From positions 14,279 to 78,278 of the forward strand of contig JAUIDY010000001.1 in NCBI GenBank assembly GCA_030428385.1: a DNA stretch of 64,000 nucleotides, given 5' to 3'. Made by a program: the position numbers and the translations under genes. The DNA is from Rhodothermia bacterium. GTDB lineage: Bacteria > Bacteroidota > Rhodothermia > Rhodothermales > JAAAOL01. Each line of letters begins with the position of its first letter. The first letter of the stretch is position 1. The notes beneath the pieces are model-generated. The model saw nothing but the letters and a program-made list of their open reading frames with translations. It made no database searches and was not told where the DNA came from. Below are positions 8,801-49,722 of this stretch, one piece after another.

Positions 8801-10311
8801 GGCTCTTCGAGGGCGACCCGCACGATGACCTCGCCGGTATCGCACACACCGGGCACGGCATCGTCTTTTAAGCTCCGGTCGCCGGTGGAGTTAACAACGA
8901 GTTGCGGATTGATGCCGATCTTGCGGCTGTAGAGCACAAGGCCCGGCAGCAACGGGTTGCGCGCCTCGGCCCGGTAGATGGCACTGTCGTTGGGGTTGGG
9001 CACCACATACGTGCTGTCTTCGGCACCTACAATCTCCTCATCGTTGCGGAACCATCGATACGTCGTTTCTTCTCCTCCCACCGAAACAAAGAGTTCCACC
9101 TGTCCATCGTCGCGGGAGATGCGGGTATCCACGCTGTCTTGGGGAGCATAGAAAAAAGTCGTGACGTTGGGATTGTCGCGAAGCCCTGCCAGTGGCTCCA
9201 GGCTATGAAACGTGAGCCGGTTGTTGAAGAGGCGCAGTTGGCGCAGGGCAGGCAGGTCGCTCAGGTCCGGCACCGATTCGAGCGCATTGCCGTGCAGGTT
9301 GAGGGTTTGCAGCGTCGCAAGCTGGGTAAATGAAGCCGGTACGTCCCCGGTCAATTGATTAAAGGCGAGCGAGATGGTGACGATGTTCGACAGGTTGCCC
9401 CATGACTCCGGGATAGGACCTTCCAGTCGGTTCGAACTCAGTTGCATGGTGCGCAACTCGGTCAGGTTACCGAGTGAGGCCGGGAGCGGCCCTTCTACGC
9501 CTGCAAGAAACAGATCGAGGGTTTGAAGGGCTGCCAGGTTGCCCAGTCCTTCGGGCAGCGGACCGCTGAACTGGTTGCCCAGCTCCGTAGAGGTGCTACC
9601 CAGCCGGAGGGATACCAGGTTGGCCAGGTTGCCGAGCGACGCAGGCAGGGGGCCCGTCAACTGGTTGTTGACCAATTCAAGCTGTTGAAGGCTGGTCAAG
9701 TTGCCAATATCTGCAGGAATGGGGCCGGTGAGTTGGTTGTCGCCTAGTTCAAGAATCTCCAACTGCGTAAGACCCGTGAGCGTGTCAGGAATGGTACCCG
9801 TGAGTTGGTTGTTGCCGAGCCATAACTGCTGCAGGTTCACGAGGCGGCCCAGCGACAGCGGAAGCGGGCCACTCAAGGCGTTACGACTCAGGCTGAGTTG
9901 TTCGAGGCTGATCAGGCTGCCGAGCGTATCGGGAATGGAGCCGGTGAGGTTGCCATTGGCCCCGCTGTTATTGCTGAGGCTAATGCCTCGGGGCTGGGTC
10001 AGATGTCCCAGCCTGTCGGGGATGGTCCCTACAAGGTTGTTACTCGAAAGGAGCAGGCGGTCCACCAGCCGGTCCCGCACAATCACGCCACTCCAAGCGG
10101 ACGTGGGACGGGGTTTCTCCGGGTCATTTCCGGTAAAAACCCAGTCGGAGCGGGTACCTGCTCCGTCCTGGGTGTCCCAGTTGGGGCCGCCGGTTGCTTC
10201 GAAAAGGGCAATCAGCGCCAGCGAGTCGCGCACGATTACGGTCTGTGCCGCCACACCCATCGGCAGGACGAGCCACCCAACGCTGAGGAGGATATAGACG
10301 AGCCTTTTCAT
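5887..10311 (-). CDS. Giant T9SS-secreted surface protein: LRR region + parallel beta-helix repeats + Ig-like (Big_2-type) domain + T9SS C-terminal domain
   Basis: ATG 10311 gives the signal peptide MKRLVYILLSVGWLVLPMGVAAQ. About 12 x 24-aa LxxLxLxxNQLTGxIP repeats are followed by many 22-23-aa N/G/I-rich beta-helix turns. A VAPGDTVQFTALGFDAFNQSV Ig-like block follows, and the protein ends in NYPNPFNQTTTIPYDL...GLYFYRL...LLLLR. Confidence 0.8.
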   Translation of the reverse strand: MKRLVYILLSVGWLVLPMGVAAQTVIVRDSLALIALFEATGGPNWDTQDGAGTRSDWVFTGNDPEKPRPTSAWSGVIVRDRLVDRLLLSSNNLVGTIPDRLGHLTQPRGISLSNNSGANGNLTGSIPDTLGSLISLEQLSLSRNALSGPLPLSLGRLVNLQQLWLGNNQLTGTIPDTLTGLTQLEILELGDNQLTGPIPADIGNLTSLQQLELVNNQLTGPLPASLGNLANLVSLRLGSTSTELGNQFSGPLPEGLGNLAALQTLDLFLAGVEGPLPASLGNLTELRTMQLSSNRLEGPIPESWGNLSNIVTISLAFNQLTGDVPASFTQLATLQTLNLHGNALESVPDLSDLPALRQLRLFNNRLTFHSLEPLAGLRDNPNVTTFFYAPQDSVDTRISRDDGQVELFVSVGGEETTYRWFRNDEEIVGAEDSTYVVPNPNDSAIYRAEARNPLLPGLVLYSRKIGINPQLVVNSTGDRSLKDDAVPGVCDTGEVIVRVALEEPECTLRAAIETANQTTDGIIEIVFAIPGTSTPDISLGEFQGINLPALLRPVVIDGTTQIAGQVTLTKRDRSFVDDGLRLRSRGSTVRGLRFDDDSGEDFSGITLQGEGGHTVEQCVFYDLDEGVIALSPGNTIRESFFIAPSTGILLTSATATANVVEHNFFGINEEGEVAGRVGFGVFIRGAATQNIIRENVLANSNYGVFFGAFTPDQGEAERPFENTITDNVFYLSIAGVVLRQATNNLIQNNNIFSNGTGVIFAENATHNTVDGNIIGINPDTPTEQAGNVVAGIEIKRFRDFKLPAPQGNVIQNNLIAKNSGNGIHIEFGSDTILANNRIAENGASGIYLDESWQGTISNTTIRDNHIGLPFDGSTLDGNGEHGIEVEAAANTRILDNVITENAVSGIFISGLGSRNTSVLNNRIGTDETGRRPFGNTRYGLHVQDAAFTVIGSNVISANGESGVYLEATPVQFEFNKIGTDASGNDPLGDLGNARFGVEIHNPYVGVPSEVFSNTVAYNGATGLHLEGVGAMFVQQNHLHHNATGLAVANVADEVVIQSNLIERTRERGLDATEIDRLLLIRLNTIRNNGGTGTGIHLTAAHALIEGNELSGDAGDAIALEQGSMATITGNNVFGNAGFGLHSLDASVPLVVAQGNWGGDASGPGGQGPGTGDAVSPNVDFAPWRTEPVAVGIAPAAEILTIAEVDTVSFFVQNWQVRNDVLTLDVRDDAGWLEGPATFDVALTDSLGARVDLPVQVPGGSPVGATSMGTAIATSQANPAHADTTTFMLSALSTALVQLLVLPETVEVAPGDTVQFTALGFDAFNQSVPVTPSWSTSGGTIDANGLFVAGETAGRFEVRAEEPTTGRVAVARVFNDIPVATEETEKPPGDFRLLPNYPNPFNQTTTIPYDLPTPARVRLVVYDVLGRTVAMLIDGDQTAGSHQVSFDARALPSGLYFYRLTADAHRATRSLLLLR

Positions 10312-10443
10312 GATGCGCCCCGGCATCGGCCATGCTGCAATACACCGCAGCGATGAGGAAGAGAGCTTCCTCAATCAAGCAAAAACTTAACAACGGCGCA
10401 ACCAACGGCCCTTCTTTTTAGGAAGGCGGGCGGCATTAGCTTC

Positions 10444-11837: not shown

Positions 11838-13790
11838 CTAATTACTACCCACGTCAATGACCTGTGCGGTGCCGTTTCGGGCTTCCCAGACCCAGGTGGC
11901 CGGGAGCGGCACCGACTTCTGCCCACGCCCGCGTCCTTTCTGGGTATAATCAATGTGCAGGTTTACTTTCAGAAAACCCTGGCCCCCAACCACTTCCTGG
12001 TTGCGATAGTCTGGGCTGAACGTCGCCCCCGTGAGGTTAAACGTCCGGTGCAGCTGATCAATTTGCGGCTTGTAGAAGTTGCGCAGTGCCGTGGGGACGT
12101 TGGCCCAGTCGTCGTTCAAAATGGCGTTCTCCAACTGGTCCAGCAGCGGGTAGCTGGCGTCTTGCAGCGTCGTCAGCGGATCGACGGGCGGTGGTGCGGG
12201 TTCCGGCTCGGCCTCCACAGGAGGCGGAGACGCGGTAGTCGCTGCCGTGTTGTCGTCCGGCGGCTCGTTTTGAACAGGCTCGTTGCTCGTTTCATTCGCG
12301 GCGACGGGCAACGGGTCCGGGTCTGTGGACCGGTTCGGCGTTTCGTTTACCGGCGTGCGCACAGGCGTCGCCGTGTTTTGCGGGGCGGCGTCTTGCTGGC
12401 GCGGCGGCGGAGCGGCAGCAGGGGGTGGCGCTGTTTCGGTAGTCGTTTCGGGCACGGTAGACTCGGCCTCCGGCGGTGTGGCCGACGCCAGCAATTCTTC
12501 TTCCCCCGCAGGAAGCGTTGTTTCGGGAGAGGTTGTCTCCGGCAGCGTAGTCTCCGAAATGTTGATCGGCGGATCGCCACCCTCGGGCAAGAGCGAGATG
12601 GTAGCATACACCGCACCGACCAGCAACAGCAGCCCTCCGGCAAAAGCAGCATACCGCAGCCACGGTGTTGTATCGGTGCCTTTAGGTGCCCGCGTTTTCG
12701 TTCGGGTCTTGGTGCGCGTTTTGGTGCGGGTAAACGTCCCGTCTGACGGTAATGCCACCAGTTCAGCCTCGCAGACATCCAGGGCCGCCAGCATCGCCTG
12801 GGCATCGGCATACCGCTGGTCGCGGTCTTTCGCCAGCGCCTTCAGGATAAAGGCTTCGAGCGGGGCCGGAATGTCAGGCCGAAACGACGTCATCGGCGGG
12901 AAGTCCTGCTCCACAATGGCAAGCTGGACGGCAAAGGAGCCGCTTTCCTTGTTGAACGGCAACCGCCCCGTCAGAAGCTCATACAGCGTCATGCCGATGG
13001 AAAACAGGTCGCTGCGCTGGTCGAGCTTCGTGTCGCCTTTGATCTGTTCGGGCGACATATACGCCAGCGTGCCCGACTGCGTGAGCGTGCGGGTGGCGTC
13101 GTCTTGCTCGTAGAACTTCACCAGCCCAAAGTCCATCACCTTCACCGTTCCGTCCGCCGTCAGCATGATGTTGTGCGGCTTGATGTCGCGGTGCAGGATG
13201 CCACGTTCGTGTGCAAACTGGAACGCGACGAGCAACTGCCGGATCAGGGGGATGGCCTCGTCCCACGGCATCGCGCCCCGGTCGCGGATGCGCTCGGCCA
13301 GCGTCTGTCCCTCCACAAACTCCATCGTGATATGGTGCCCCACCGCCGATTGGTTCAGCGTATACACCGTCACGATGTTCGGGTGGTGGATGCGCGCCAT
13401 GGCCTTGGCTTCCAGTTGGAAACGCCGCAGCAATTCTTCGTTGCGCATCAGCGTCGGCGAGATCACCTTGAGGGCTTCGGCACGGTCGAGGCTGACGTTT
13501 TGCACCTTGTATACCATGCCCATGCCGCCCTGCCCGAGCAGTTTTTCATAGCGGTAGCCGTCCACCACCTCGCCCATTTGCGGCTGCACCATCATGGTGC
13601 CCGCACCAAAGACGCCGGCGGTGTTGCTCGAAAAGACGGGGCCGTGCGAGGCCAACCGTGTTTGCACGGCCTGAAGCAGATCCGTGTCTTCTTTGCAATG
13701 TGCGTGTAGAAACGCCTCGCGTTGCGCGGCAGGCAATGACGAGACGGCCTGGACAAGCGTGGTAATCTGGCTTTCCCGATGGGAATCCAT
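11838..13790 (-). CDS. Hanks-type Ser/Thr protein kinase with TM helix, Pro-rich linker and C-terminal extracytoplasmic domain
   Basis: Carries the GQGGMGMVYKV P-loop, HRDIKPHNIML catalytic loop, DFGLVK, and SPEQ. A TKTRTKTRTKTR tract precedes a TM segment (WLRYAAFAGGLLLLVGAVYATISLL), followed by a ~170-aa P/T/E/A-rich region. The start could instead be the upstream codon at 13874. Confidence 0.85.
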   Translation of the reverse strand: MDSHRESQITTLVQAVSSLPAAQREAFLHAHCKEDTDLLQAVQTRLASHGPVFSSNTAGVFGAGTMMVQPQMGEVVDGYRYEKLLGQGGMGMVYKVQNVSLDRAEALKVISPTLMRNEELLRRFQLEAKAMARIHHPNIVTVYTLNQSAVGHHITMEFVEGQTLAERIRDRGAMPWDEAIPLIRQLLVAFQFAHERGILHRDIKPHNIMLTADGTVKVMDFGLVKFYEQDDATRTLTQSGTLAYMSPEQIKGDTKLDQRSDLFSIGMTLYELLTGRLPFNKESGSFAVQLAIVEQDFPPMTSFRPDIPAPLEAFILKALAKDRDQRYADAQAMLAALDVCEAELVALPSDGTFTRTKTRTKTRTKTRAPKGTDTTPWLRYAAFAGGLLLLVGAVYATISLLPEGGDPPINISETTLPETTSPETTLPAGEEELLASATPPEAESTVPETTTETAPPPAAAPPPRQQDAAPQNTATPVRTPVNETPNRSTDPDPLPVAANETSNEPVQNEPPDDNTAATTASPPPVEAEPEPAPPPVDPLTTLQDASYPLLDQLENAILNDDWANVPTALRNFYKPQIDQLHRTFNLTGATFSPDYRNQEVVGGQGFLKVNLHIDYTQKGRGRGQKSVPLPATWVWEARNGTAQVIDVGSN

Positions 13791-13951
13791 GGCGGACGCA
13801 GAAGAAGCTATGGCAGAAGCGTTGGGCAAAGTAAACGCATGAATGGGTGGGAGTTTCACGTCCCCCACCCTCAACTCAACAAAGGGCTATCAAAGAGGAT
13901 AGCGAAAAACCCACGCGGGACGGTCCATGCGGCAAACAGGGCGCCTCACTA

Positions 13952-21193: not shown

Positions 21194-21592
21194 TTACGTC
21201 CACAGCGTATGCATCGGGTGGCGCAGTGCCAGCGTGCCTTCCATCAGCGTGCGGTCGAAGTTGATAAAACCGTTGACGAGGTAAACCTCCTCGGGCGTGC
21301 AGTTCCACAGTAGCTTGACCTCGCGGTCGCCGCGCCGGTAGTCGTTTGTGAGGATGACACCGACGAGCCGGTTGGTCGCCGTGCCGAGGAAAATGTCCAC
21401 CTCGCCGCCATCAGAGGTGTGCGTATCGCAGACGTAGCCGTAGTCGATGGGGTAGATGATCTCGGGAAACTGCGGATGGGGCGAGCGGTAGGCCCGCTCC
21501 ACCACGGTGCCGTTGGTCTCCACCAGCGCTTCCCACGCCGCCCAGTTAAAATGCTGCGTGAGAAGGGTGGCAAAGGACGCGTTTTCGGACAT
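21194..21592 (-). CDS. Small inorganic-pyrophosphatase-like protein
   Basis: YPIDYGYVCDTHTSDGGEVDIFLGT resembles the family I PPase metal-binding core. ATG 21592 was chosen. The assignment is tentative. Confidence 0.5.
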   Translation of the reverse strand: MSENASFATLLTQHFNWAAWEALVETNGTVVERAYRSPHPQFPEIIYPIDYGYVCDTHTSDGGEVDIFLGTATNRLVGVILTNDYRRGDREVKLLWNCTPEEVYLVNGFINFDRTLMEGTLALRHPMHTLWT

Positions 21593-21711
21593 AAGCACGA
21601 GGGTTGAGCAAAACAAAGGGTTGTACGCGGTGCGCGTCCGACCAGATTCGAGAAACCCCGCAAAGCGAGCGGCTGTTCATCCTGCCCTCCTTCGCCCCAA
21701 CCCGCTGCACC

Positions 21712-22734
21712 ATGTCCTCACTTCCCACCATCCGCGACATCGCCCGTGCCCTCGAAGCCTGGGCCCCGCCCGCCTCGGCGCAGTCATACGACAACGTGGG
21801 CTTGCAAGTGGGCGATGCCTCCCGCGAGGTGGAACAGGCATTGATTGCGCTGGACCTGACGCCGCAGGTGCTGGAAGAAGCCAAGACCCAGGGCGCAACG
21901 CTCATCATTACGCACCATCCCTTGATTTTTCGCCCGCTCCGAAATGTCACCACGGCAAATCCTGTCTCCGGGCTGGCGTTTCGGCTGGCGGAAGCGGGGA
22001 TCGCGCTCTACAGCATCCACACCAACCTCGATGCCGCCCCGGCAGGCGTCTCGTTTTCCCTCGCCGAGCAGTTGGGCCTGCGCGACGTGCAGTTCCTCGA
22101 CACGATGGACGAGGCGCTGTACAAACTGGTCGTGTTCACCGCCGACGCTGAAGCCACACAGAATGCGCTGGCGGAAGGCGGTGCGCACCGCCTCACGGTC
22201 CTACCAACCGCCGAAACCACGCGCCTCGAAGCCGAGGTGGACCGGTGGCATTTGAAGTCGATGTTGGCCGCACTTCCTCCCGGTGCAACCTATGATGTGT
22301 ACCCGGTGCAGCAAGCCACCTCCCGCGCTGGGCTGGGCGCCATCGGCACGCTGGAAGCACCCGAACCGCTCCCAGCATTCCTTGCGCGTGTCAGCGAGCG
22401 GCTGGACGCCGCCAGCCTGCGGTATGTGGGCGACCCCGAATCCACCGTTCAAACCGTGGCCGTGTGTGGCGGCTCGGGGAGCGACTTCACGCGCCGCGCC
22501 CTGGCCGCCGGAGCCGACGCCTACGTCACCGCGGACGTGACATATCACAAGTTCTTCGATGTGCTGGATGCCAACGGACACCCACAAATGGCACTGATCG
22601 ACGCCGGGCACTACGAGACCGAAGCCATCACCGAACGGCTGCTGCAACACTGGCTCCGCGAACGATTCCCCGCCACCAACTGGAACCGCACCGCCCTGCG
22701 CACCAGCCCCATGCAGACGTTTGTGCAACGGTAG
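21712..22734 (+). CDS. Nif3-like dinuclear metal centre protein (GTP cyclohydrolase 1 type 2 homolog family)
   Basis: Carries YDNVGLQVGD, LIITHHPLIF, SIHTNLD and DAGHYETE blocks, with an inserted middle domain. ATG 21712 was chosen. Confidence 0.85.
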   Translation: MSSLPTIRDIARALEAWAPPASAQSYDNVGLQVGDASREVEQALIALDLTPQVLEEAKTQGATLIITHHPLIFRPLRNVTTANPVSGLAFRLAEAGIALYSIHTNLDAAPAGVSFSLAEQLGLRDVQFLDTMDEALYKLVVFTADAEATQNALAEGGAHRLTVLPTAETTRLEAEVDRWHLKSMLAALPPGATYDVYPVQQATSRAGLGAIGTLEAPEPLPAFLARVSERLDAASLRYVGDPESTVQTVAVCGGSGSDFTRRALAAGADAYVTADVTYHKFFDVLDANGHPQMALIDAGHYETEAITERLLQHWLRERFPATNWNRTALRTSPMQTFVQR

Positions 22735-22765
22735 TAGTCTGACCAGCCCATTCTCATTTGGTGTC

Positions 22766-22892
22766 ATGCTGAACTTGTTTCAGCATCTCTGTTTTTAGCG
22801 TTGAGATCCCGAAAGATCCTGAATCAAGTTCAGGACAGGGTTCGGGATGACATCAACTTCAACTTTGAAAGAGTATCAGACTTGTCAAAGTT
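22766..22892. repeat. Cluster of intergenic hairpins (REP-like)
   Basis: Three hairpins: atgctgaa/ttcagcat (22766-22786); nested atcccgaa...tcctgaa tcaa ttcagga...ttcgggat (22806-22848); aactttga/tcaaagtt (22861-22892). The first two share a ctgaa-N4/5-ttcag core. Confidence 0.45.
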
Positions 22893-22907
22893 CTAGCACG
22901 GCTTTAG

Positions 22908-23585
22908 CTACATCTGCTCGGTGTCGTAGAACAGGTTGACGTTGCTGACGTGCGCGGCCTTGCCGAGTTCTTTGGTTAGCGCCTCGGTGTGCTCTTTCTT
23001 GCGGAGATCCACGAAGAATGTCAGGTCCAGCATGTCGCTGTCGCCCACCGAGCGCGCGTTGATGAGCTTGTAGCGCTTGGCGTATTTGTCGAGCACGGGC
23101 AGGTACGTCGCCGAGCCGTTTTGCTGCGGCGCATCGTACGAGAGTTGCAACACAAACGCCTCCTTGTGGATGACGGCGTAGTTGCTCTTGGTGGTGACGG
23201 CAATCACGGCGCAGATGCTGGCGGTGCCCATGAGGGCCACGGCGTACATGCCCACACCGGCGGCCATGCCTACCGCCAGCGCGAAGAACACAAACACGAT
23301 GTCTTGCGGATCTTTCACGGCCGTCCGAAACCGGATGATTGACATGGCCCCGACGAGGCCGAAGGCACGGGCGAGGTTGTTGCCAATCGCGAGCATCACC
23401 ACCGCCGTAATCATCGCCAGAAAAATCATTGAGCGGACGAAGCTGGGCGCGTAGTCCGAGCCCCGGTAGGTCCAGCGATATGTCAGCGAGATAGCGAGTC
23501 CACACACGAGTGCCACCAGCAGCCCCTTCACCACATCGCCGGTGTGAATCGCGTAATCTTGTATCGACTGAAACTCTTGCAACAT
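22908..23585 (-). CDS. DUF4956-family membrane protein
   Basis: Four TM segments plus the LARAFGLVGAMSIIRFRTAVKDPQDIVFVFFALAVGMAAG block typical of DUF4956, followed by a soluble C-terminal ~90 aa. Confidence 0.7.
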   Translation of the reverse strand: MLQEFQSIQDYAIHTGDVVKGLLVALVCGLAISLTYRWTYRGSDYAPSFVRSMIFLAMITAVVMLAIGNNLARAFGLVGAMSIIRFRTAVKDPQDIVFVFFALAVGMAAGVGMYAVALMGTASICAVIAVTTKSNYAVIHKEAFVLQLSYDAPQQNGSATYLPVLDKYAKRYKLINARSVGDSDMLDLTFFVDLRKKEHTEALTKELGKAAHVSNVNLFYDTEQM

Positions 23586-23600
23586 AGGGGGGAAACGTCC

Positions 23601-24437
23601 TCAAACTTCCATCGATGAAGGGCGCAATATATTGCTTCGCGCGAACACGGTGTGGGCTTTCTCCGCGTCCAGGTGTTTCACCACGGGCGGGGCTTTGGCC
23701 AGCACCGCGGCCTTGTGGTCCGTATGCCAGCCATTTAACTCCGCGCAGATGCAGTACTTGGACAAGGCGCGACGGCGGAGGTTATATTTCGCCAGCATCG
23801 GCAGCAGCCACGCCGGGAACCGGGTGTTGTACTTCACTTCGAGGATGAAGTGGCCCGGAAACGCATTCCGCAGGCCATCATCTGTAAAAAGTGCGTCGAG
23901 GGGCAGGTAGGAAGCCCCCCGCAGGTTGCGGTCGAAGGTGATGCGCAGGGTGGCATCGAAGCGCCCGTGGAAGGCTTCGCGCTCATAAACGGTGGTGTGA
24001 GTAGGCCGCAGTGCATACCGCCGCACATGGTAGAAGAACCGCCGCGCATCTTCGATCGCCTCGGCGTAGTGACCGCCGAGACGAATGTATTGCTTCACAT
24101 CACCGGTGGCGAACAACGCGCCAAGGTCCTCAAACGCGAGCGGGGCGCGGTTTTTTGAGACCTGGTTTTCCACCTTGCGCTTGATCTCGAGAAAGACCGG
24201 GTGGCCGTCTTCAAGCTGGTTGTAGGCCCGCACGCGCAGCTTGCGCCGCACCTTGATGCCCGCCTGCTTCTCGTGGTAATACCGGAGCGAGGCGGTGTCA
24301 AGATAGATGCTGCGGACGGTGTACCCGCGCTCCTCGTAGCCATGCCCATGCCGGTCCAATTCCACAAACGGCGCAATGGCAGCCCGGAGGTCAGGCAGCG
24401 CGGCGTTGGGAACGAGGTATTTATGTTCGGCACGCAT
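23601..24437 (-). CDS. VTC-domain protein (polyphosphate-polymerase-type triphosphate tunnel metalloenzyme)
   Basis: MRAEHKYLVP..., YTVRSIYLDT, KVRRKLRVRAY, FLEIKRK and ILEVKY strands alternate basic and acidic residues, as in the Vtc4 catalytic tunnel fold. ATG 24437 lies 4 nt after the upstream stop. Confidence 0.8.
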   Translation of the reverse strand: MRAEHKYLVPNAALPDLRAAIAPFVELDRHGHGYEERGYTVRSIYLDTASLRYYHEKQAGIKVRRKLRVRAYNQLEDGHPVFLEIKRKVENQVSKNRAPLAFEDLGALFATGDVKQYIRLGGHYAEAIEDARRFFYHVRRYALRPTHTTVYEREAFHGRFDATLRITFDRNLRGASYLPLDALFTDDGLRNAFPGHFILEVKYNTRFPAWLLPMLAKYNLRRRALSKYCICAELNGWHTDHKAAVLAKAPPVVKHLDAEKAHTVFARSNILRPSSMEV

Positions 24438-24441
24438 CAGG

Positions 24442-25506
24442 TCAGGACAGCGGGGCTTGAAACCAGCGGCGGACATACTGGGCCAGCGTCAGCGTCCCGC
24501 CCGCAATCTGGCACCGCGTCACGGTTCCGGGTAGCAGCCGAGGGCCGTCCTCGATGAGCGCCGTCACCAGCACCACCGATTGGCCGTTTAACTGATGGAT
24601 CGTGTCGCCCAGTTGATGCACCTGCGCCGCGATGGGCTCCGCCAACCCGGCTACCTGCACCGTCACGTCGGCACCCACCGTCAGGTGCAGGTGCTCCTCC
24701 CAGCGGACAGGCATAACGACAACGAACGTGTCCATGTGATGCACGGTAAGCAGCGTGTCGCTGCCAAACGACCGCACGACAGTGCCCGCAATCGGTGCCG
24801 TAATGGTGTACAAGCTGAGGCGGTTGTTCAGCGTGGCGATGTCATTGCGCAGCGCCTCCACTTCGGTGCGCGTCAGGCTGAGTTGTTCGGGTTTTTCGCC
24901 CGTTTGCAGTGCATCCAGCCGTGCCTGCGCCGCTGCGATGTTGGCCAGAAAGACGCGGTGCTGGCTTTCCGCAATTTCCAGTTCTTGCTCCGAGATCAGC
25001 GCCTGTGCACGCAGGGCCCGCTGGCGTTCGAGGATGTTTTCGTGCTGTGTGGCTTCTTCCTGGGCCTGCGCCAGTTGCATCTGCGCCTCGTTGACCACGG
25101 CAGCCTTTTCGCCCGTGGTTTGCACGTCCAGCATCGCCAGCGTGGCTGCCAGTTCCCCGGTGAGTTGCGTCAGTTCGCGCTCTGTGGTGCTGGAAAAAAT
25201 GGTCGCGATGGTGTCACCTTCGGCCACGTCCACGTCGGGCTTGAGGCCGGGCTGGAGCGTGAGTTGCACAAAGTCGCCCCGCTCGAAGCGGTTGAGCGCG
25301 TAGCTCTGCACGGTGCCCTCGGCATGGTCGTGCAACATCCCGCCAATGGAGCCCGCGCCATCGCGCACCAAGGTCCACGACTGGGCGGGCCATACCTTGC
25401 CCGTCACTTCGATGGTATAGGCCACCTCCGAGGGAAGTAACAAAACACCGACGACCACCAAAACAGCGAGGACGCCAGCCACTACATAACGCACCATGTC
25501 CTGCAA
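24442..25506 (-). CDS. HlyD-family membrane-fusion (periplasmic adaptor) protein
   Basis: Has an N-terminal TM (YVVAGVLAVLVVVGVLLL), a lipoyl-like VAEGDTIATI, a ~110-aa coiled coil and an ITAPIAGTVV beta-barrel motif. Confidence 0.7.
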   Translation of the reverse strand: MQDMVRYVVAGVLAVLVVVGVLLLPSEVAYTIEVTGKVWPAQSWTLVRDGAGSIGGMLHDHAEGTVQSYALNRFERGDFVQLTLQPGLKPDVDVAEGDTIATIFSSTTERELTQLTGELAATLAMLDVQTTGEKAAVVNEAQMQLAQAQEEATQHENILERQRALRAQALISEQELEIAESQHRVFLANIAAAQARLDALQTGEKPEQLSLTRTEVEALRNDIATLNNRLSLYTITAPIAGTVVRSFGSDTLLTVHHMDTFVVVMPVRWEEHLHLTVGADVTVQVAGLAEPIAAQVHQLGDTIHQLNGQSVVLVTALIEDGPRLLPGTVTRCQIAGGTLTLAQYVRRWFQAPLS

Positions 25507-25565
25507 TCAATCGCTCCATAAAACAACCGAAAGGCCCGTGCGGAAGCTTTCGGACGCGGGGGGTG

Positions 25566-25660
25566 TTAACATAAAGTTAAAGTTAATGTAATACCGTGGA
25601 AAAAGATAAGATCACATGGAGAGCCTGTTAAAAGGAGCCCCGGCGGTGGGATCACATGGC
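25566..25660. promoter_or_regulatory. AT-rich divergent control region with direct repeats
   Basis: gttaacataaagttaaagttaatgtaat (tandem agttaa) is followed by two copies of gatcacatgg at 25610-25619 and 25650-25659, 40 nt apart. The region lies between the divergent HlyD-like and CotH genes. Confidence 0.25.
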
Positions 25661-25745
25661 AGATTCCCTCCACTAATAAAACACAATGCCTATCTTCAGC
25701 ACCTTTTGTTCGTTTTGTCTCCCCCACCCCACCCCCGTTTCGACC

Positions 25746-28700
25746 ATGCGTACCCTGGTCTTTAGCCTGCTCCTTCTTGCTGTTGTTGGTGAGGTCCAGG
25801 CACAACATCCGGTGCTGAATGAACTGATGGCCAGCAACACCGAAACGCTGGCCGACGATGATGGCGACTTCTCCGACTGGATCGAGCTGTATAATCCCAC
25901 GGGGGCGGACATCTTGCTAGGAGGCTATGGTCTTTCGGACGAAGAGGGCGAGCCGTTTAAGTGGGTTATCCCGTCCCAAACGTTGACTGCGGGTGACTAT
26001 GCCCTCTTTTTCGCCTCGGCGAAAGACCGGGCGGGCACCAACGGGCTATGGGAAACGGTGATCGACTGGGGCGATGCGTGGCGCTACCGGGCCGGGACCT
26101 CCGAGCCGCCTGCCACCTGGACCGACCCCGGCTTTGACGACGCGGGCTGGAACACCGGCCCCAGCGGGTTCGGCTACGGCGACGGCGATGACGCCACCCC
26201 CTTCTCCTCCAGTACCCTCGTGCATTACGTCCGCACGACCTTCTCCATCGACGACCCACAGGCGGTGAATGGGGCACTGTTTCATGTGCACTATGATGAT
26301 GCGTTTGTGGCGTACCTGAACGGCGTCGAGATCGCGCGGGCTGGCATCGGCACTCCCGGCGTGCGCCCCACCTATCAGGAGGGCGCCCTCACCGATCACG
26401 AGGCGCAAAACGTGCTGGGCCAGCTTCCCGACGAGTTTGAGATCGACACGGACCTGCTGCAACCGGGCGAAAATGTGCTGGCTGTGCAGATCCACAACGT
26501 CTCCACCACGTCGTCCGACCTGTCGCTGATCCCGTTTCTTTCGCTCGGCCTGTCTACACCGCCCGCTTCGCCGCGTGGCCCGTCAACGCACCTCGTTCCC
26601 TTTTTCGAGCGGCTGCCCCATGCCAACTTCAAGCTGAGCAGCGGCGGCGAGACGCTGTATCTCACCGGCCCCGATGGCGTGCGGGTGGATGAAATCGAGA
26701 TCCCGGCGCTGCCGCCGGATGTGTCGTATGGCCGCACCCCGGATGGCAGCGCCGCGTGGACGTTGTTAACCACCGCTACGCCCCAAGCCCCCAACCCCTC
26801 GACGGGCATCGCCGACATTTCGGCGGCACCGGCTTTTGACCAGGCTTCGGGCTTTTATGCCAATGCCATCAGCGTGCAACTCTCCGCCGATCCCCCCGAG
26901 GCCCCGATCTATTTTACCCTGGATGGATCGGAGCCGACGATGACCAACAGCGCCCGCTACACCCAGCCGCTGACGCTGTCCGAAACGACGGTGATCCGCG
27001 CGCGCACCTTTACACCGGGGCTCATCCCCAGCCCCATCACCACCCACACCTATCTCGTTGGCGAGACCCAAAACCTGCCCACCATCGCCATCTCCACCGA
27101 CCCGGAAAACCTGTGGGACTGGAATACCGGCATTTACGTCCTGGGGCCGAATGCTGACCCCCAGCCGCCGAATCGAGGCGCGAATTTCTGGCAGGACTGG
27201 GAAATCCCGGTGCATGTGGCGTTTTACGAAACCGACGGCGAACTGGCTTTCAGCACCGACGCGGGAGCCCGCATCGTGGGCGGCTACACCCGCAGTTCCC
27301 CCCAGAAGTCCCTCGCCCTCTTCGCGCGTGGACGGTATGGCGACTCGGCCTTCGAACACCAGATCTTCCCCGACCGACCGTATGACTCGTACCAGGCCGT
27401 TACGCTGCGCAACGCGGGCAACGACTGGAGCCGGGCGCATTTCCGGGATGGGTTTATGCAAAGCCTCGTCACCGAAGCCGACATCGACGGGCTGGCGTTT
27501 CGCCCGGCGGTGGTGTTCCTCAATGGCGAATACTGGGGCATCCAGAACCTGCGCGAAAAACCCAACGAGCATTATCTGGCCTCGCTGCACGACGTGGACG
27601 CCGATGCCCTCGACCTGCTCGAAGGCAATGCCGATGTGATCGAAGGAGACAACGCCGACTACCTCGCCCTGCTCAACTTTATGGCCACCAGCAATATGGC
27701 CTCGGACGATGTGTATGCAGAGGTGCGCCGCCAGATCGACATCAACAACTTCATCGACTACCAGGTCACCCAGATCTTTATCAACAACCGCGACTGGCCC
27801 GGCAACAACATCAAGTTCTGGCGGCCCCATGAGGACGGGCGCTGGCGGTGGATCCTGTTCGACACCGACTTTGGCTTTGGCATTTATGGCAACCTCGAAT
27901 ACGAGGAAAACGGGATCGCCTTCGCCACCGACCCCAACGGTCCCGATTGGCCGAATCCGCCGTGGTCTACCTTTGTGCTGCGCCGCCTGCTCGAAAACCC
28001 CGACTTCGAACGGGCCTTCATTAACCGCTTCGCCGACTTCCTGAACGTCCATTTTACCACCGACCGGATGGAGGAAGCACTTGATGCCATCATCGACACG
28101 ATGGACGAGGAAATCCCGCGCCACATGGCCCGTTGGGGCGCACAGGGTGGACCATGGGAATCTCACATCAATGTCATCCGCACCTTTGCCCACCAGCGAC
28201 GGGCCCCGCTGCTGCGCCACTGGCGCAACTACTTCGCCCTGGCCGCCCTGCAACCCATCACGCTCGATGTGGCGACCGCGGGCACCGGCACCATCCGCAT
28301 CAACCGCGAAATGGTGACGGCCTTTCCGTGGACGGGCGACTATTTCCCCCGCGTCCCGGTGACCCTCACGGCCGAGCCTGCCCCCGGCTATCGGTTTGTG
28401 GAATGGTCGGGCGCGGCCCAAAGCACTGACCGCGTCCTCACCATCGACCCGGTTAACTCCCCCTCGGTAACCGCCCATTTTGCGCCTATCTCAGGAAGTG
28501 CCGCCCCGGTGGTGATCAACGAAATCCAGTACCACCCCCCGGATGACGCCGACACAGGCGACTGGGTGGAACTGCTCAACCGCAGCCCCGAAGCCTTCGA
28601 CCTCTCGGGCTGGGCGCTGATGGACGCTCAGGAAGACCATGCTTTCACCCTCCCGGAGGGTACCACCATTGCACCCAAAAGCTACCTTGTCCTGACCCAG

Positions 28701-29282
28701 GAGCCCGACGCTTTCGCGGCGGTCCACCCCGACGTGCCCTCCCTCGGCGGTTGGGACTTCGGATTTAGCCAGGCGGGCGACCATGTGCGGATTTTGGATG
28801 CCGACGGCGTGCTGGTAGACTCGCTGACCTTCGATGACGACACGCCGTGGCCCAGCGAGGCTGATGGCGACGGCCCCTCGCTCGAACTCATCGAATCGGC
28901 CCATGACAATGCCAACCCGGCCAACTGGAGTTTTTCGCGGGTTATGGGCGGCACACCGGGCGCCCTCAACACCGTTGGCGTTCCGGTAGACGCCACACCC
29001 CAGCCCACCTTGCCCCAGACCTACACGCTGGAAGCCGCTTACCCCAACCCCTTCCGCGACCACGTCACCTTCAGCTACAGTCTCCCCGAAGCCGGACGCG
29101 TGGAACTGCGAGTTTATAACACCCTGGGGCAACAGGTGGCGACGCTGATCAACACCGACCAAGCCGCCGGAAGACAGCGTATTCGCTGGAGCGCCGCCGA
29201 CGCCGCACCGGGGCTCTACCTCGTCCAGCTTCGGGTCGCGGGTACGCTCAAGGCCAACCGCAGCGTGCTTCGGATTCGCTAA
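25746..29282 (+). CDS. T9SS-secreted CotH-family kinase with two lamin-tail domains and a chitobiase/hexosaminidase-C-like domain
   Basis: ATG 25746 gives the signal MRTLVFSLLLLAVVGEVQAQ. Lamin-tail-domain blocks are LNELMASNT...FSDWIELYNPTGADILLGGYGLSD and VVINEIQYHPPDDADTGDWVELLN...LSGWALMD. The CotH core is LRNAGNDWSRAHFRDGFMQSLV...FLNGEYWGIQNLREK. The T9SS C-terminal domain is AAYPNPFRDHVTFSY...GLYLVQL. Confidence 0.85.
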   Translation: MRTLVFSLLLLAVVGEVQAQHPVLNELMASNTETLADDDGDFSDWIELYNPTGADILLGGYGLSDEEGEPFKWVIPSQTLTAGDYALFFASAKDRAGTNGLWETVIDWGDAWRYRAGTSEPPATWTDPGFDDAGWNTGPSGFGYGDGDDATPFSSSTLVHYVRTTFSIDDPQAVNGALFHVHYDDAFVAYLNGVEIARAGIGTPGVRPTYQEGALTDHEAQNVLGQLPDEFEIDTDLLQPGENVLAVQIHNVSTTSSDLSLIPFLSLGLSTPPASPRGPSTHLVPFFERLPHANFKLSSGGETLYLTGPDGVRVDEIEIPALPPDVSYGRTPDGSAAWTLLTTATPQAPNPSTGIADISAAPAFDQASGFYANAISVQLSADPPEAPIYFTLDGSEPTMTNSARYTQPLTLSETTVIRARTFTPGLIPSPITTHTYLVGETQNLPTIAISTDPENLWDWNTGIYVLGPNADPQPPNRGANFWQDWEIPVHVAFYETDGELAFSTDAGARIVGGYTRSSPQKSLALFARGRYGDSAFEHQIFPDRPYDSYQAVTLRNAGNDWSRAHFRDGFMQSLVTEADIDGLAFRPAVVFLNGEYWGIQNLREKPNEHYLASLHDVDADALDLLEGNADVIEGDNADYLALLNFMATSNMASDDVYAEVRRQIDINNFIDYQVTQIFINNRDWPGNNIKFWRPHEDGRWRWILFDTDFGFGIYGNLEYEENGIAFATDPNGPDWPNPPWSTFVLRRLLENPDFERAFINRFADFLNVHFTTDRMEEALDAIIDTMDEEIPRHMARWGAQGGPWESHINVIRTFAHQRRAPLLRHWRNYFALAALQPITLDVATAGTGTIRINREMVTAFPWTGDYFPRVPVTLTAEPAPGYRFVEWSGAAQSTDRVLTIDPVNSPSVTAHFAPISGSAAPVVINEIQYHPPDDADTGDWVELLNRSPEAFDLSGWALMDAQEDHAFTLPEGTTIAPKSYLVLTQEPDAFAAVHPDVPSLGGWDFGFSQAGDHVRILDADGVLVDSLTFDDDTPWPSEADGDGPSLELIESAHDNANPANWSFSRVMGGTPGALNTVGVPVDATPQPTLPQTYTLEAAYPNPFRDHVTFSYSLPEAGRVELRVYNTLGQQVATLINTDQAAGRQRIRWSAADAAPGLYLVQLRVAGTLKANRSVLRIR

Positions 29283-30864: not shown

Positions 30865-32874
30865 ATGCCCCAACGCTTACTGCTTTGCTTTGCGCTGTTT
30901 CTGTCCGTCACGTTGACGGCCCAGGGACAAGCCTGGATTAACGAACTGCACTACGACAATACCGGCGGTGATACCGGCGAGTTTATTGAAGTTGCCGGGG
31001 TTGCCGGAACGGACCTCACCGGCTGGTCGCTGGCACTCTACAATGGGGACGGGTCTGCCACCTATGACACCGAACCCCTTGCCGGAACCATCCCTGACCA
31101 GGGTGGTGGCTTTGGGACCCTGTCTTTTGCTATCGCCCCCATTCAAAATGGCGCACCCGATGGGCTCGCGCTTTGTGACGGCGTCGGCGTCGTGGTGAGT
31201 GGTACCACCACGCAGTTCCTCAGCTACGAAGGTGTGATTACGGCATCAGGAGGCTGCGCCGATGGCCTCACAAGCACCGACATCGGGGTTGATGAAGACC
31301 CGGCTCCTCCCATCGGCTCTTCGCTGGGCCTCGAAGGCACGGGCACCTCGTATGACGACTTCACCTGGACCACCTTCGCCGATGACTCGCCGGGTGCAGT
31401 GAATGCCGGTCAGTCGTTTGGTGTTGGCCCGCTGCCCACCACCGATGCCGGTATCTGGTTCAATGAGGCGCACTACCAAGACACCGATGCTGTAACGACC
31501 ACCTTCCTAGAGTTGGTGGCGGATGGAGGCGGCTTAGGGCCTGCCATGGGCGCTCTCCCCGAAAACCCCGACCTCACCTTGAACAAAACAAGCAGCCCAA
31601 TTCCTGTTGTTCCGGGTGTGTCGGTGGTGCTTTATGAAGCCGCAACGGGAATGATTGCCACCCTGCCGCCAGCTCTGGGAGGCGGCCCGGCTATCCTTCC
31701 CCTGGGCTTCTTTACCCCTGGAGAAACCATTGGCGACTTCACGTTCCTCACCTTCGGCGGCGACACGGAATTCCTCTTTGCCGCTGCGGGAGATGCCCTT
31801 GCCCTGTGCTTTGATCTCGGTTTGCCCGGTGAAGCCATCCTCGAAAGTGGCGGCGCCGTGCAGTTCTTCAGCCAACTCGGCACCACAACCGCTGCCGTAG
31901 GCTGTGCCGCAGGCCGCACCAGCACCGACCTCGGCGTCTCCGAAGACACCTCCACCCTGCCGGGCGCCTCGATCGGCCTCACGGATGGCCCCGGCGCAGG
32001 CATGGACTTTGGCGACTTCGTTCCGACAACCTTCCCCAATACCGATATCCCACGGGCCACCCCTGGCAGTCCCAACTTCTACCAGTCGTTCGCCATCACC
32101 AACGAGTGCCCTGCACCGTTTGGCATCGATGACTTCAAAAGTGGGCCCAACAACAAGGAATTCGTCTCCTTCCTCACCAACCCCGCCACCGACCTGACCT
32201 CTCCCCAACTGTATCTGGTGATGTATGACGGCGCGACGGGAGACGCCTATTTCAGCACCACGCTCGATGGCACAACCGATGGCGCTGGGGGCTATGTGAT
32301 TGGGGCTAAAAAAGTGATCCCCCGGGACCAAAACCTGCCCCCCGGCACCATCCAGCCCGGCCCTGATGGCATTGCGGTGCTCACCCGCGATGTGCCGCTG
32401 GGCTCGAGTGTCTATACCCTCACTTTCCCCAATGAAGTCTGCGCGTACCTGTACTACCAGAACAAAACCACCATTCTGGTCAACTACGGAACGCCCGGAC
32501 CGACCAAAAAACCGAGCGACGTTGGGTTTGACCTACTGGCCTTCCTGACCGCCCAACAGCAGCAGGAGGCCCCGCTCGCTTTGTTGGAAGAAGACACCGC
32601 GACGCTGCCGACTAACTTTACCCTGGATCAGAACTACCCGAACCCGTTCAACCCCACCACCGCGATACAATTCGCGCTGCCCGAAGCCGCCGATGTCTCG
32701 CTGGTGGTATATGACATGCTCGGGCGGGCTGTTCAAGAACTCGTTGCCCGCCCCATGGAAGCGGGCTCCTACACCGTCTCGTTCGATGCCCAGGGCCTGC
32801 CAAGTGGCATGTACATCTATCGCCTGACAGCGGGCGGCTTCTCTCAAACCAAACGCATGGTCCTGCTGAAGTAG
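30865..32874 (+). CDS. T9SS-secreted protein with two N-terminal lamin-tail-like domains
   Basis: Signal MPQRLLLCFALFLSVTLTAQGQ. AWINELHYDNTGGDTGEFIEVAG...LTGWSLALYNG is followed by a second copy IWFNEAHYQD...FLELV. The T9SS C-terminal domain is NYPNPFNPTTAIQFAL...GMYIYRL...MVLLK. Confidence 0.7.
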   Translation: MPQRLLLCFALFLSVTLTAQGQAWINELHYDNTGGDTGEFIEVAGVAGTDLTGWSLALYNGDGSATYDTEPLAGTIPDQGGGFGTLSFAIAPIQNGAPDGLALCDGVGVVVSGTTTQFLSYEGVITASGGCADGLTSTDIGVDEDPAPPIGSSLGLEGTGTSYDDFTWTTFADDSPGAVNAGQSFGVGPLPTTDAGIWFNEAHYQDTDAVTTTFLELVADGGGLGPAMGALPENPDLTLNKTSSPIPVVPGVSVVLYEAATGMIATLPPALGGGPAILPLGFFTPGETIGDFTFLTFGGDTEFLFAAAGDALALCFDLGLPGEAILESGGAVQFFSQLGTTTAAVGCAAGRTSTDLGVSEDTSTLPGASIGLTDGPGAGMDFGDFVPTTFPNTDIPRATPGSPNFYQSFAITNECPAPFGIDDFKSGPNNKEFVSFLTNPATDLTSPQLYLVMYDGATGDAYFSTTLDGTTDGAGGYVIGAKKVIPRDQNLPPGTIQPGPDGIAVLTRDVPLGSSVYTLTFPNEVCAYLYYQNKTTILVNYGTPGPTKKPSDVGFDLLAFLTAQQQQEAPLALLEEDTATLPTNFTLDQNYPNPFNPTTAIQFALPEAADVSLVVYDMLGRAVQELVARPMEAGSYTVSFDAQGLPSGMYIYRLTAGGFSQTKRMVLLK

Positions 32875-48978: not shown

Positions 48979-49722
48979 ATGTCTCGTTTCCTGTTTGCAC
49001 TTCTCCTTCTTTTCCCCGGCACTGCTATGGCTCAGTCCTTTTCCGGCACTTATGCCGGTACCCTCAACGGCACCCCTGCCACCCTCCTGCTTCAAGAAGA
49101 CGCCGCCGTGGTGCAAGGCCGCGTCGATGTCAGCGGCTACCAGTATGTGCTCCAGGCCCAGGTTCAAAACAACGCGGGCATCGGCATCTTGCAAGACGTG
49201 CAAACGGGCGGCGTCCTGAACGTGGAGTTGGCCCCGATGCCGCAGGGCGTAACGCTGGTGCTCGTCAGCCAAAACGGCTTCACGGGCCAGATGCAGCGGA
49301 CCGCACTTGCCTTTACTCGCAGCGAGGGCACCATTACAGACACCGCGCCACCTTCCAGTTCGACACCAGCCGCAGTCGGTGGCGCGCTCGACCCGCTTAT
49401 GGTGGGCGTATGGGCGCATCAGGAGATCTACAACAGCGGCGACTTCAGCGGCACCACGCAAGAAACTATGCAAGTCCACCCCGATGGCACCTTTGTCCTC
49501 GGTGGCGGGCAGGTAAGCGTGAGTGGAAGCTTTTTCTCGGGCAACACCGGAGGCGGTGGCGAAACCTTGCACGGCTTCTGGCAAACGCAGGGCAACATCG
49601 TCTACGTGCGCGGGCAAGGCCAAACGCAATGGGTGCCCTTCGCCCGGTATTACATCGAAAACGGGCGTATGCTGCTTACCTTCGGCGATGGCTCGCGACA
49701 GGTCTGGTACCGGCAGGGCTAA
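48979..49722 (+). CDS. Secreted hypothetical protein
   Basis: Signal MSRFLFALLLLFPGTAMAQ. Composition is beta-rich and Gly/Thr/Gln-rich, and no family was recognised. The stop overlaps the stop of the convergent kinase gene by 4 nt. Confidence 0.6.
   Translation: MSRFLFALLLLFPGTAMAQSFSGTYAGTLNGTPATLLLQEDAAVVQGRVDVSGYQYVLQAQVQNNAGIGILQDVQTGGVLNVELAPMPQGVTLVLVSQNGFTGQMQRTALAFTRSEGTITDTAPPSSSTPAAVGGALDPLMVGVWAHQEIYNSGDFSGTTQETMQVHPDGTFVLGGGQVSVSGSFFSGNTGGGGETLHGFWQTQGNIVYVRGQGQTQWVPFARYYIENGRMLLTFGDGSRQVWYRQG

Follow-up and report, generated by a model that had tools for sequence, protein, structure and literature searches.

What does a periplasmic adaptor do in an operon that holds no pump? 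The question is raised by a 64,000-nucleotide (64-kb) stretch of contig JAUIDY010000001.1 from a Rhodothermia bacterium, referred to below as the window, with positions counted from its first letter. Three co-directional minus-strand open reading frames (ORFs) at 22908–25506 encode a periplasmic adaptor of the membrane fusion protein (MFP) type, an enzyme with a vacuolar transporter chaperone (VTC) domain, and a DUF4956 membrane protein. The adaptor, VTC, and DUF4956 genes almost certainly form one functional unit. Across the loci compared, the constant pair is the adaptor and DUF4956, the VTC gene usually lies between them, and a gene for a CotH-family kinase is often attached. We consider the operon a candidate exporter of the VTC product.

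Operon layout and gene order at related loci

The junctions between the three genes were read directly in the sequence. The adaptor stop codon and the VTC start codon stand in TCC TGA cctg ATG CGT, with a 4-nt spacer, and the TGA of the VTC gene is followed by 15 nt and the ATG of the DUF4956 gene. The three packed minus-strand genes that an earlier model-made annotation of the window had described from the letters and ORFs (the sequence-only reading) are borne out in coordinates and spacing. The adaptor ORF reaches a TTG at 25506 (24442–25506; 354-aa numbering). The G+C content at third codon positions (GC3) of the three ORFs is 0.76–0.83, the codon bias of real genes. The sequence-only reading had the three genes right but overlooked a divergent neighbor 248 bp away, which encodes a secreted CotH-family kinase (25746–29282). 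Coordinates are given in Table 1.

Table 1. Positions of the operon, its flanking elements, and related genes in the window
Feature	Coordinates	Strand	Remarks
Nested inverted repeat ATCCCGAA...CCTGAA/TTCAGG...TTCGGGAT	22806–22848	-	~60 nt past the DUF4956 stop codon; read from sequence
DUF4956 gene	22908–23585	-	225 aa
VTC gene	23601–24437	-	278 aa; ORF 23601–24476, real ATG start at 24437
Adaptor gene	24442–25497	-	ORF; the ATG at 25497 is the likely start; public assemblies have this 351-aa form
Divergent intergenic (promoter) region, adaptor operon and CotH gene	25498–25745		248 bp, from sequence
CotH-family kinase gene, secreted product	25746–29282	+	1178 aa from signal-peptide Met; Pfam CotH 172, LTD 107, Por_Secre_tail 31.8 bits
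Gene for protein with LTD-like N terminus and sorting domain of the type IX secretion system (T9SS)	30865–32874	+	669 aa; no other Pfam match; 1.6 kb from CotH gene
Gene for second CotH+LTD+T9SS-tail protein	41096–43759	+	887 aa, Pfam

Related loci were retrieved with the adaptor, with a DUF4956-alignment search (10 genome loci, nearly all from Rhodothermales and one from another Bacteroidota), and with a metagenome scan (six short loci). The adaptor lies no more than two genes upstream of DUF4956 in all ~25 informative loci from the Fibrobacterota-Chlorobiota-Bacteroidota (FCB) group. This holds for every informative locus retrieved with the adaptor (L001, L002, L003, L005, L006, L008, L020–L023, and L025–L028) and for every informative FCB-group locus retrieved with DUF4956 (L010–L015, L018, L019, L031–L033, and a contig from JGI 3300075153). 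Gene order is identical, adaptor-VTC-DUF4956, in L001, L002, L003, L005, L006, and L008, while the sequence of L007 ends inside the VTC gene; the same order is found in L025–L027, from genomes of 34%–45% G+C. Overall, the cassette spans genomes of 34%–62% G+C and adaptor identities down to 26%–30%. Flanking genes are unrelated between loci, apart from local synteny among close relatives, and the cassette alone is conserved. The three genes that the sequence-only reading had joined occur together wherever the adaptor family was examined, save that one distant subfamily has no VTC gene between the other two.

We searched for a canonical pump that the adaptor could serve. Pfam annotation covered ~40 of the 44 ORFs called in the window (a few end ORFs lay outside the scan, and several had no Pfam match). 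There were no ABC, RND, MFS, or TolC/OEP genes among these annotated ORFs, in line with the earlier remark that no pump lies near the adaptor, and no ABC, RND, or MFS genes in the annotated flanks of related loci. A neighboring canonical pump as the partner of the adaptor was rejected because none was found among these annotated ORFs.

CotH, VTC, and DUF4956 genes are contiguous in the window (22908–29282), in L013, L029, and L031–L033, and in the JGI contig. The order is CotH, adaptor, VTC, DUF4956, all co-directional, in L031–L033 and adaptor, VTC, DUF4956, CotH, with overlapping ends, in the JGI contig. The CotH proteins of these four loci have the same architecture as the one in the window and are encoded in one operon with the other three genes, and in L013 a gene for a 1655-aa CotH protein lies 10 bp downstream of the cassette. 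The window CotH protein consists of a signal peptide, LTD, CHB_HEX_C/Fn3_assoc, CotH, a further LTD, and a T9SS C-terminal sorting domain, and this kinase is likely the functional partner of the operon. A phmmer search of PDB sequences with its CotH domain found nothing. A T9SS protein encoded upstream in L018 was rejected as a CotH protein; it is a multihaem cytochrome that had clustered via its sorting domain only.

Genes for outer-membrane proteins were also observed beside some cassettes. Members of the PorV/PorQ family (T9SS cargo shuttles) flank the cassette in L001, from a 5.6-Mb genome (7750–8694 and 12627–13652), and lie upstream of it in the JGI contig. A small gene for a TDE1717-type outer-membrane beta-barrel protein is located just downstream in L031 and L032. 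In L014 (6143–7199), from a Rhodothermales metagenome-assembled genome, two overlapping ORFs take the place of a single adaptor gene, owing to a frameshift (pseudogene) or else to a fault in the assembly.

The distant adaptor subfamily (26%–30% identity) includes a Spirosoma pulveris protein that RefSeq names 'HlyD family secretion protein'. Its gene order is an LTD/PKD or T9SS-tailed protein, the adaptor, and then DUF4956 directly, with no VTC gene between. This VTC-less sister architecture was observed in L020 (1–3752), L022 (1–2729), L023, and L028. The gene after DUF4956 in L020 and L022 encodes a signal peptide and a TolC-like N terminus, W(S/T)L.DCL...KNNL, and matches Pfam OEP with an E value of 0.024 on a truncated 108-aa ORF, which is suggestive of a TolC-like protein. 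In L028, a TonB_C gene stands in place of the TolC-like gene.

Among the loci and published clusters examined, the adaptor occurs only where an outer membrane exists. An Anaerolineae (Chloroflexota) locus, L029/L030, has the order VTC-DUF4956-beta-helix-GH172-CotH/LTD without an adjacent adaptor. No adaptor is listed in published clusters from Firmicutes and Bifidobacterium, which consist of cotH, a polyphosphate polymerase gene (PPP), DUF4956, and either DUF4832 or a diguanylate cyclase/phosphodiesterase (DGC/PDE) (PMC7112168). The absence of the adaptor from the Chloroflexota locus and from these monoderm clusters fits an adaptor that is needed only to cross the periplasm and outer membrane.

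The 10-nt sequence GATCACATGG occurs twice in the divergent promoter region as a perfect direct repeat, at 25610–25619 and 25650–25659 (40 bp spacing); this could be a regulator site or chance. A promoter and terminator scan identified one weak sigma-70-like minus-strand site in this region, not above shuffle expectation, and there was no Rfam match to a riboswitch or leader within 22600–25800. The operon may end at the nested inverted repeat beyond the DUF4956 gene; the repeat has no T-run behind it, and the terminator scan made no call there.

Properties of the three encoded proteins

The adaptor has a single N-terminal hydrophobic segment (residues 1–32, Kyte-Doolittle maximum 2.79). An AlphaFold2 model built with eight aligned homologues (predicted local distance difference test, pLDDT, of 80) has strands at 27–105, helices at 106–231, and strands at 234–340. 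It combines an N-terminal transmembrane (TM) helix (2–22) with beta-barrel and lipoyl-type beta domains and an alpha-hairpin formed from four long helices, with arms of ~60 residues. A Foldseek search of the PDB with this model returned MacA, EmrA, AcrA, MexA, and ZneB with E values from 1e-14 to 1e-9. The Pfam HlyD_3 score is 20 bits, under the cut-off of 22.2, and all matches to NCBIfam adaptor families are far under their cut-offs, with a precomputed HH_YBHG call graded 'weak'; these sub-threshold Pfam and NCBIfam matches are to MacA-, EmrA-, DevB-, and YbhG-type adaptors. The HlyD-type label given by the sequence-only reading therefore stands by fold and N-terminal anchor but falls short of the Pfam threshold, and the assignment rests on the structural matches to MacA, EmrA, AcrA, and MexA rather than on the Pfam score. 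That this protein is a true periplasmic adaptor is, in our judgment, very probable.

The RLS motif (RxxxLxxxxxxS) is the TolC-binding site of adaptors (PMC3391258). It is present here as R161-x3-L165-x6-S172 (354-aa ORF numbering) at the predicted tip of the hairpin, where the turn spans 168–172. In an alignment that reaches down to 29% identity, R161 is conserved in all 24 sequences, L165 in 21 of the 24 (Met in the others), and S172 in 20. Exhaustive searching of 1.84 billion representatives with a profile identified 516 clusters at an E value of ≤1e-30, nearly all ~350 aa and full length, and by this measure the adaptors form a large, distinct, and unnamed family. A word-indexed homologue search reached 8–20 members, compared with at least 516 clusters by the exhaustive search. 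Some members carry additions at the N terminus. In P0104 (475 aa), the TM helix is preceded by a fused FHA domain on the cytoplasmic side (Pfam, 46.8 bits), which hints at phospho-threonine-dependent control from the cytoplasm, and P0028, P0035, and P0143 have extensions of ~40 aa.

The VTC protein matches Pfam VTC with 140.4 bits (cut-off, 23) over profile positions 2–231 of 235, and it is basic (45 K+R against 31 D+E). It contains no hydrophobic segment, which indicates a soluble protein. Profiles of its orthologues match yeast Vtc4 with E values of 2.5e-6 (5 sequences) and 9.5e-14 (12 sequences). In these alignments, Vtc4 residues K200, R264, R266, K281, Y359, R361, and R373 correspond to K6, R68, R70, K86, Y151, R153, and R165, none of which varies among 12 sequences with identities as low as 37%. 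Yeast VTC is inactivated by mutating R264, R266, and E426 (PMC9911596), and K458 of Vtc4 is the catalytic lysine (PMC4641920). From sequence comparison, the window enzyme is probably polymerase-like, making polyphosphate (polyP); taken by itself, the identity of the product as polyP is an evenly balanced call that follows from homology.

The DUF4956 protein matches Pfam DUF4956 (PF16316) with 60.2 bits, above the cut-off of 30.6, and 3380 homologues were retrieved for the family. Pfam MgtC scores 27.9 bits, below its cut-off of 31.4, and NCBIfam MgtC/SapB scores 26.7 bits (E value, 3.8e-6) against a cut-off of 214, with similarity over the full length; profile comparison thus identifies the protein as a distant MgtC/SapB relative. 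A model from 30 sequences (pLDDT, 76) has five helices at 15–133 and a beta-alpha-beta-beta-alpha-beta domain at 144–220. Four segments are strongly hydrophobic, and the fifth helix, added by the model, is invariant and amphipathic (71–87). The TM region holds the invariant motif GNNLARAFGLVGAMSIIRFRT, and the most conserved block is G68-N-N-L-A-R-A-F-G-L-V-G-A-M-S-I-I-R-F-R-T88 together with K91 and D95, a glycine-rich helix with a terminal basic cluster, probably on the cytoplasmic face. A fold search with the model produced matches only for the C-terminal domain, to ACT/ferredoxin-like domains. Two other candidates were discarded: a SecDF fold match (TM score, 0.27) was not meaningful, and CcmC, from a PDB sequence search (E value, 0.22), was a chance match. 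DUF4956 is likely the inner-membrane partner of the adaptor. The descriptions that the sequence-only reading gave of these two proteins, a soluble enzyme with a VTC domain and a four-TM DUF4956 protein, agree with the scores and segments above, to which the model adds the fifth helix.

Proposed export of the product and competing explanations

Our preferred explanation is that the operon encodes an envelope-spanning exporter that moves the VTC product towards surface CotH kinases, a chain that we put forward tentatively and that, taken whole, we think somewhat more apt to fail than to hold. The soluble VTC enzyme would sit at the cytoplasmic face of the inner membrane, where it most likely polymerizes ATP phosphate into polyP, and would pass its anionic product to a DUF4956 oligomer (MgtC-like, with four to five TM helices and a cytoplasmic ACT-like domain). 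The N-terminally anchored adaptor would assemble on DUF4956, and its ~60-residue alpha-hairpin, with the RLS motif, would connect to a TolC-type outer-membrane channel whose gene is unlinked or, in one subfamily, possibly linked. The product would exit the cell without build-up in the cytoplasm or periplasm, and at the surface it would serve the neighboring T9SS-secreted CotH kinase as phosphoryl donor, substrate, or matrix. DUF4956 would take the role of the inner-membrane transporter in an efflux-pump-like assembly, with VTC supplying the cargo. We infer each of these steps. Passage of the product across the outer membrane, considered alone, comes close to an even call but stays just short of it. 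A more ambitious version, which seems rather unlikely to us, is a new class of tripartite exporter in which VTC and a DUF4956 oligomer replace the ABC, RND, or MFS motor, synthesis drives transit, and the adaptor and TolC carry polyP to the surface as the phosphoryl donor of CotH or as a grafted substrate, with monoderms doing without the adaptor.

Several points weigh against the export model. The sample of ~25 loci is modest and rich in Rhodothermales, set against an adaptor family of 516 clusters, and what is proposed about function follows, for every bacterial member, from gene neighborhoods, sequences, and modeled structures. Among the long loci, only about half have a neighboring CotH gene. 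None of the annotated window ORFs, and none of the loci of the same type (type A), provides a linked TolC gene, and the TolC-like call in L020 and L022 is weak, on truncated ORFs for which NCBIfam and PDB sequence searches gave nothing. The fold search found no solved structure that resembles the TM domain of DUF4956. MgtC is known as a regulatory membrane protein, not as a channel or transporter, and because of this relationship the role of DUF4956 as a channel partner stays conjectural. In Streptococcus intermedius, deletion of the VTC homologue gave no aggregation phenotype, and deletions of the DUF4956 and CotH homologues changed the Pel level modestly and also affected aggregation (SIR_1594-1591; PMC12345266).

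Some of these points suit a product that stops in the periplasm. VTC and DUF4956 would then make polyP, or a different anion, and move it into the periplasm. There the adaptor would serve as a scaffold or cage to retain or guide it, for instance to buffer cations or phosphate; an outer-membrane channel would be absent, and CotH would not be directly linked. The lack of a linked TolC gene and the partial adjacency of CotH are consistent with this, and eukaryotic VTC delivers polyP into a closed lumen (PMC9911596). Deposition in the periplasm is nonetheless unlikely in view of the TolC-docking RLS motif conserved at the hairpin tip, the probable TolC-like gene after DUF4956 in L020 and L022, and the four-gene operons with a secreted CotH in some lineages. 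In addition, tolC commonly lies apart from the genes of the pumps that it serves, for example in Escherichia coli.

The sequence-only reading had let its case depend on conserved tunnel residues, and this is where the enzyme gives a divided answer: the seven Vtc4 residues are invariant, but the region of E426 and K458 is unaligned and a hydrolase-type glutamate, E4, is kept. Vtc4 E426 and K458 were not alignable, as the HMMER alignments end near Vtc4 residue 400, and a 45-column C-terminal sub-profile of VTC had no PDB match. The invariant motifs LEVK (E200, K202) and SKY (S226-K227-Y228) are likely equivalents of this region, judged from their invariance, with E200 proposed as the counterpart of E426 and K227 as that of K458. 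E4 is itself invariant and aligns with Vtc4 T198, at the Glu-4 position of AtTTM3. In AtTTM3, an acidic patch of Glu-2, Glu-4, Glu-90, and Glu-171 forms the second-metal site of hydrolytic triphosphate tunnel metalloenzymes (TTMs), a site absent from Vtc4 (PMC4641920). The invariance of E4 leaves room for hydrolase or other TTM chemistry. The VTC protein might hydrolyze or convert another triphosphate, as a polyphosphatase, nucleotide cyclase, or similar enzyme, and the small phosphorylated molecule exported or sensed by DUF4956 and the adaptor might be a different one, perhaps the donor from which the extracellular CotH kinase takes its phosphoryl group. The position of E4, shared with hydrolytic and cyclase TTMs, speaks for this, as does the low identity to Vtc4, which is reached by profile only (E value, 1e-13). 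We regard it as distinctly unlikely, given that Pfam assigns the protein to VTC at 140 bits, not to CYTH, and that its strongly basic composition fits the handling of a polyanion. R2 is also basic, like Vtc4 R196 (Glu-2 in AtTTM3), as is K202, by an inferred mapping, where AtTTM3 probably has Glu-171; because of these two residues, the acidic patch is at most partial.

A regulatory or homeostatic module is a third alternative. DUF4956 would be a membrane regulator like MgtC and would use its ACT domain as a sensor to tune a different membrane machine or the Mg2+/phosphate balance; the polyP made by VTC would remain in the cytoplasm, and the adaptor would be a structural envelope partner. The similarity of DUF4956 to MgtC/SapB is weak but full-length, covering both the TM part and the ACT-like domain; the authors of the S. 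intermedius study suggested that polyP may stay in the cytoplasm; and genes for MgtE and a pyrophosphatase lie near the Anaerolineae locus. This alternative is improbable, as it leaves unexplained both the strict linkage of a TolC-docking adaptor to DUF4956 in diderms, with its absence in monoderms, and the association with secreted CotH kinases. Finally, although adaptors normally pair with ABC, RND, or MFS pumps and the sub-threshold matches are to adaptors of that kind, coincidental adjacency of an adaptor that serves an unlinked pump is essentially excluded by the same order and orientation in ~25 loci with unrelated flanks, over the full range of G+C content and adaptor identity, and by the lack of a canonical pump gene in the annotated flanks.

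In bacteria, PPK1 and PPK2 are credited with polyP synthesis. In the searchable literature, outside of which most subscription journals lie, we found no characterized bacterial VTC-domain protein, no demonstrated function for a bacterial VTC-type enzyme, and no dedicated bacterial route of polyP export. CotH-family kinases are widespread: non-sporulating bacteria have them, as do pathogens (in the pel loci of clostridia and streptococci), and they occur in invasins of Mucorales; we know of no substrates or phosphate source for the secreted bacterial members. A CotH-VTC-DUF4956 module that has its own TolC-docking adaptor in diderms provides a concrete, testable model in which the product leaves the cell, and it puts DUF4956 forward as a type of inner-membrane partner that is new for periplasmic adaptors. 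If the export model is true, tripartite systems extend beyond ABC, RND, and MFS motors to a new motor class, and bacteria have a dedicated route of polyP export, which would make extracellular polyP a topic in environmental and host-associated Bacteroidota. If polyP is the donor for CotH, the supply of high-energy phosphate to extracellular kinases would be solved. Cultivable entry points are S. pulveris, with an adaptor of this family, and Bacteroides thetaiotaomicron, with a DUF4956 gene (BT3498).

Other genes in the window were recorded. A gene for a Tpt1/KptA RNA 2'-phosphotransferase (43772–44323, +) starts 12 nt past the second CotH gene, an odd pair of phosphotransfer enzymes. A minus-strand ORF of 140 aa (21194–21616), 1.3 kb downstream of the operon, has weak similarity to inorganic pyrophosphatase (YP.DYGY...DG..D; Pfam E value, 1e-3, below cut-off), and its end overlaps a long NIF3 ORF (21604–22734). 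It was rejected as a member of the module, as it is not kept beside the cassette in other loci. Surface and signaling genes at 5887–10374, 11838–13874, 49719–52409, and 52520–53119, all on the minus strand, encode a 1495-aa T9SS protein with leucine-rich repeats and a beta-helix, two Hanks-type Ser/Thr kinases (one with TPR), and an extracytoplasmic function sigma factor.

Comparison with known systems

CotH, a 'polyphosphate polymerase', and DUF4956, with DUF4832 or DGC/PDE, are accessory genes that directly adjoin the pel operons of streptococci, clostridia, and bifidobacteria (PMC7112168), and NELoc-2 of Clostridium perfringens carries a CotH-VTC-DUF4956 gene set (PMC2879425). The sequence-only reading had considered VTC/DUF4956 pairs to be without demonstrated function. 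The pair is indeed uncharacterized but is not an orphan, because it is already published as part of a module with CotH. The window shares the three neighboring families and a predicted secreted CotH with the pel accessory module. In contrast to that module, it lacks the pel genes (pelDEADAFG) and DUF4832, with no pel-type glycosyltransferase, deacetylase, or DUF4832 among its annotated ORFs, and has an adaptor gene inserted upstream of the VTC gene. The window CotH also has LTD domains and a T9SS sorting signal, and the hosts are diderm bacteria of the FCB group. What appears to be new is the joining of an adaptor to VTC-DUF4956, and not the CotH-VTC-DUF4956 module itself. No paper in the searchable literature links an MFP/HlyD-type adaptor to VTC, DUF4956, or CotH, which accords with the sequence-only reading, where the adaptor was called an undescribed addition.

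Eukaryotic VTC (yeast Vtc4/Vtc3/Vtc1; PDB 3G3Q, 7YTJ, and 8I6V) is a precedent for polyP synthesis coupled to membrane transit (PMC9911596, PMC4641920). The window enzyme resembles it in its Pfam VTC domain, in the seven invariant tunnel residues, and in its genetic coupling to a small multi-TM protein, which suggests that here, too, synthesis may be coupled to membrane transit. It differs in having no SPX domain and in being a separate soluble protein, not fused to a TM domain. Its membrane partner is DUF4956, MgtC-like with four to five TM helices and an ACT domain, and not the 3-TM VTC1/DUF202. An invariant E4 is found in place of Vtc4 T198, and the proposed target is the cell exterior, by way of the adaptor, and not the vacuole lumen.

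Like MgtC/SapB/YhiD proteins, DUF4956 has an N-terminal hydrophobic domain and a C-terminal ACT-like domain, with a profile E value of ~1e-6; unlike them, it scores below the family cut-offs. MgtC acts on the F1Fo ATP synthase and on PhoR, and we know of no pairing of MgtC with an adaptor or a TTM enzyme. In Bacteroides, DUF2490 might be an alternative outer-membrane partner. BT3498–BT3499 of B. thetaiotaomicron, a DUF4956 gene and the adjacent DUF2490 gene, were reported among iron-responsive genes (-7.6-fold, P = 0.175; PMC10434189).

The closest parallels in architecture are MacAB-TolC, EmrAB-TolC, and HlyBD-TolC. The window adaptor shares their adaptor fold (MacA and EmrA are the best structural matches), N-terminal TM anchor, and long RLS-tipped hairpin, and its sister subfamily may also share a TolC-like gene. 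It differs from adaptors of these tripartite and type I systems in scoring under the thresholds of every curated Pfam and NCBIfam adaptor family tested. In place of an ABC, RND, or MFS transporter, it has a strictly linked membrane protein, DUF4956, and a linked cytoplasmic enzyme of the TTM type, and the energy source may be polymerization itself. We would class the adaptor operon as an extension, specific to diderms, of the CotH-VTC-DUF4956 module already published, in which a tripartite-type adaptor has been recruited to a non-canonical inner-membrane partner.

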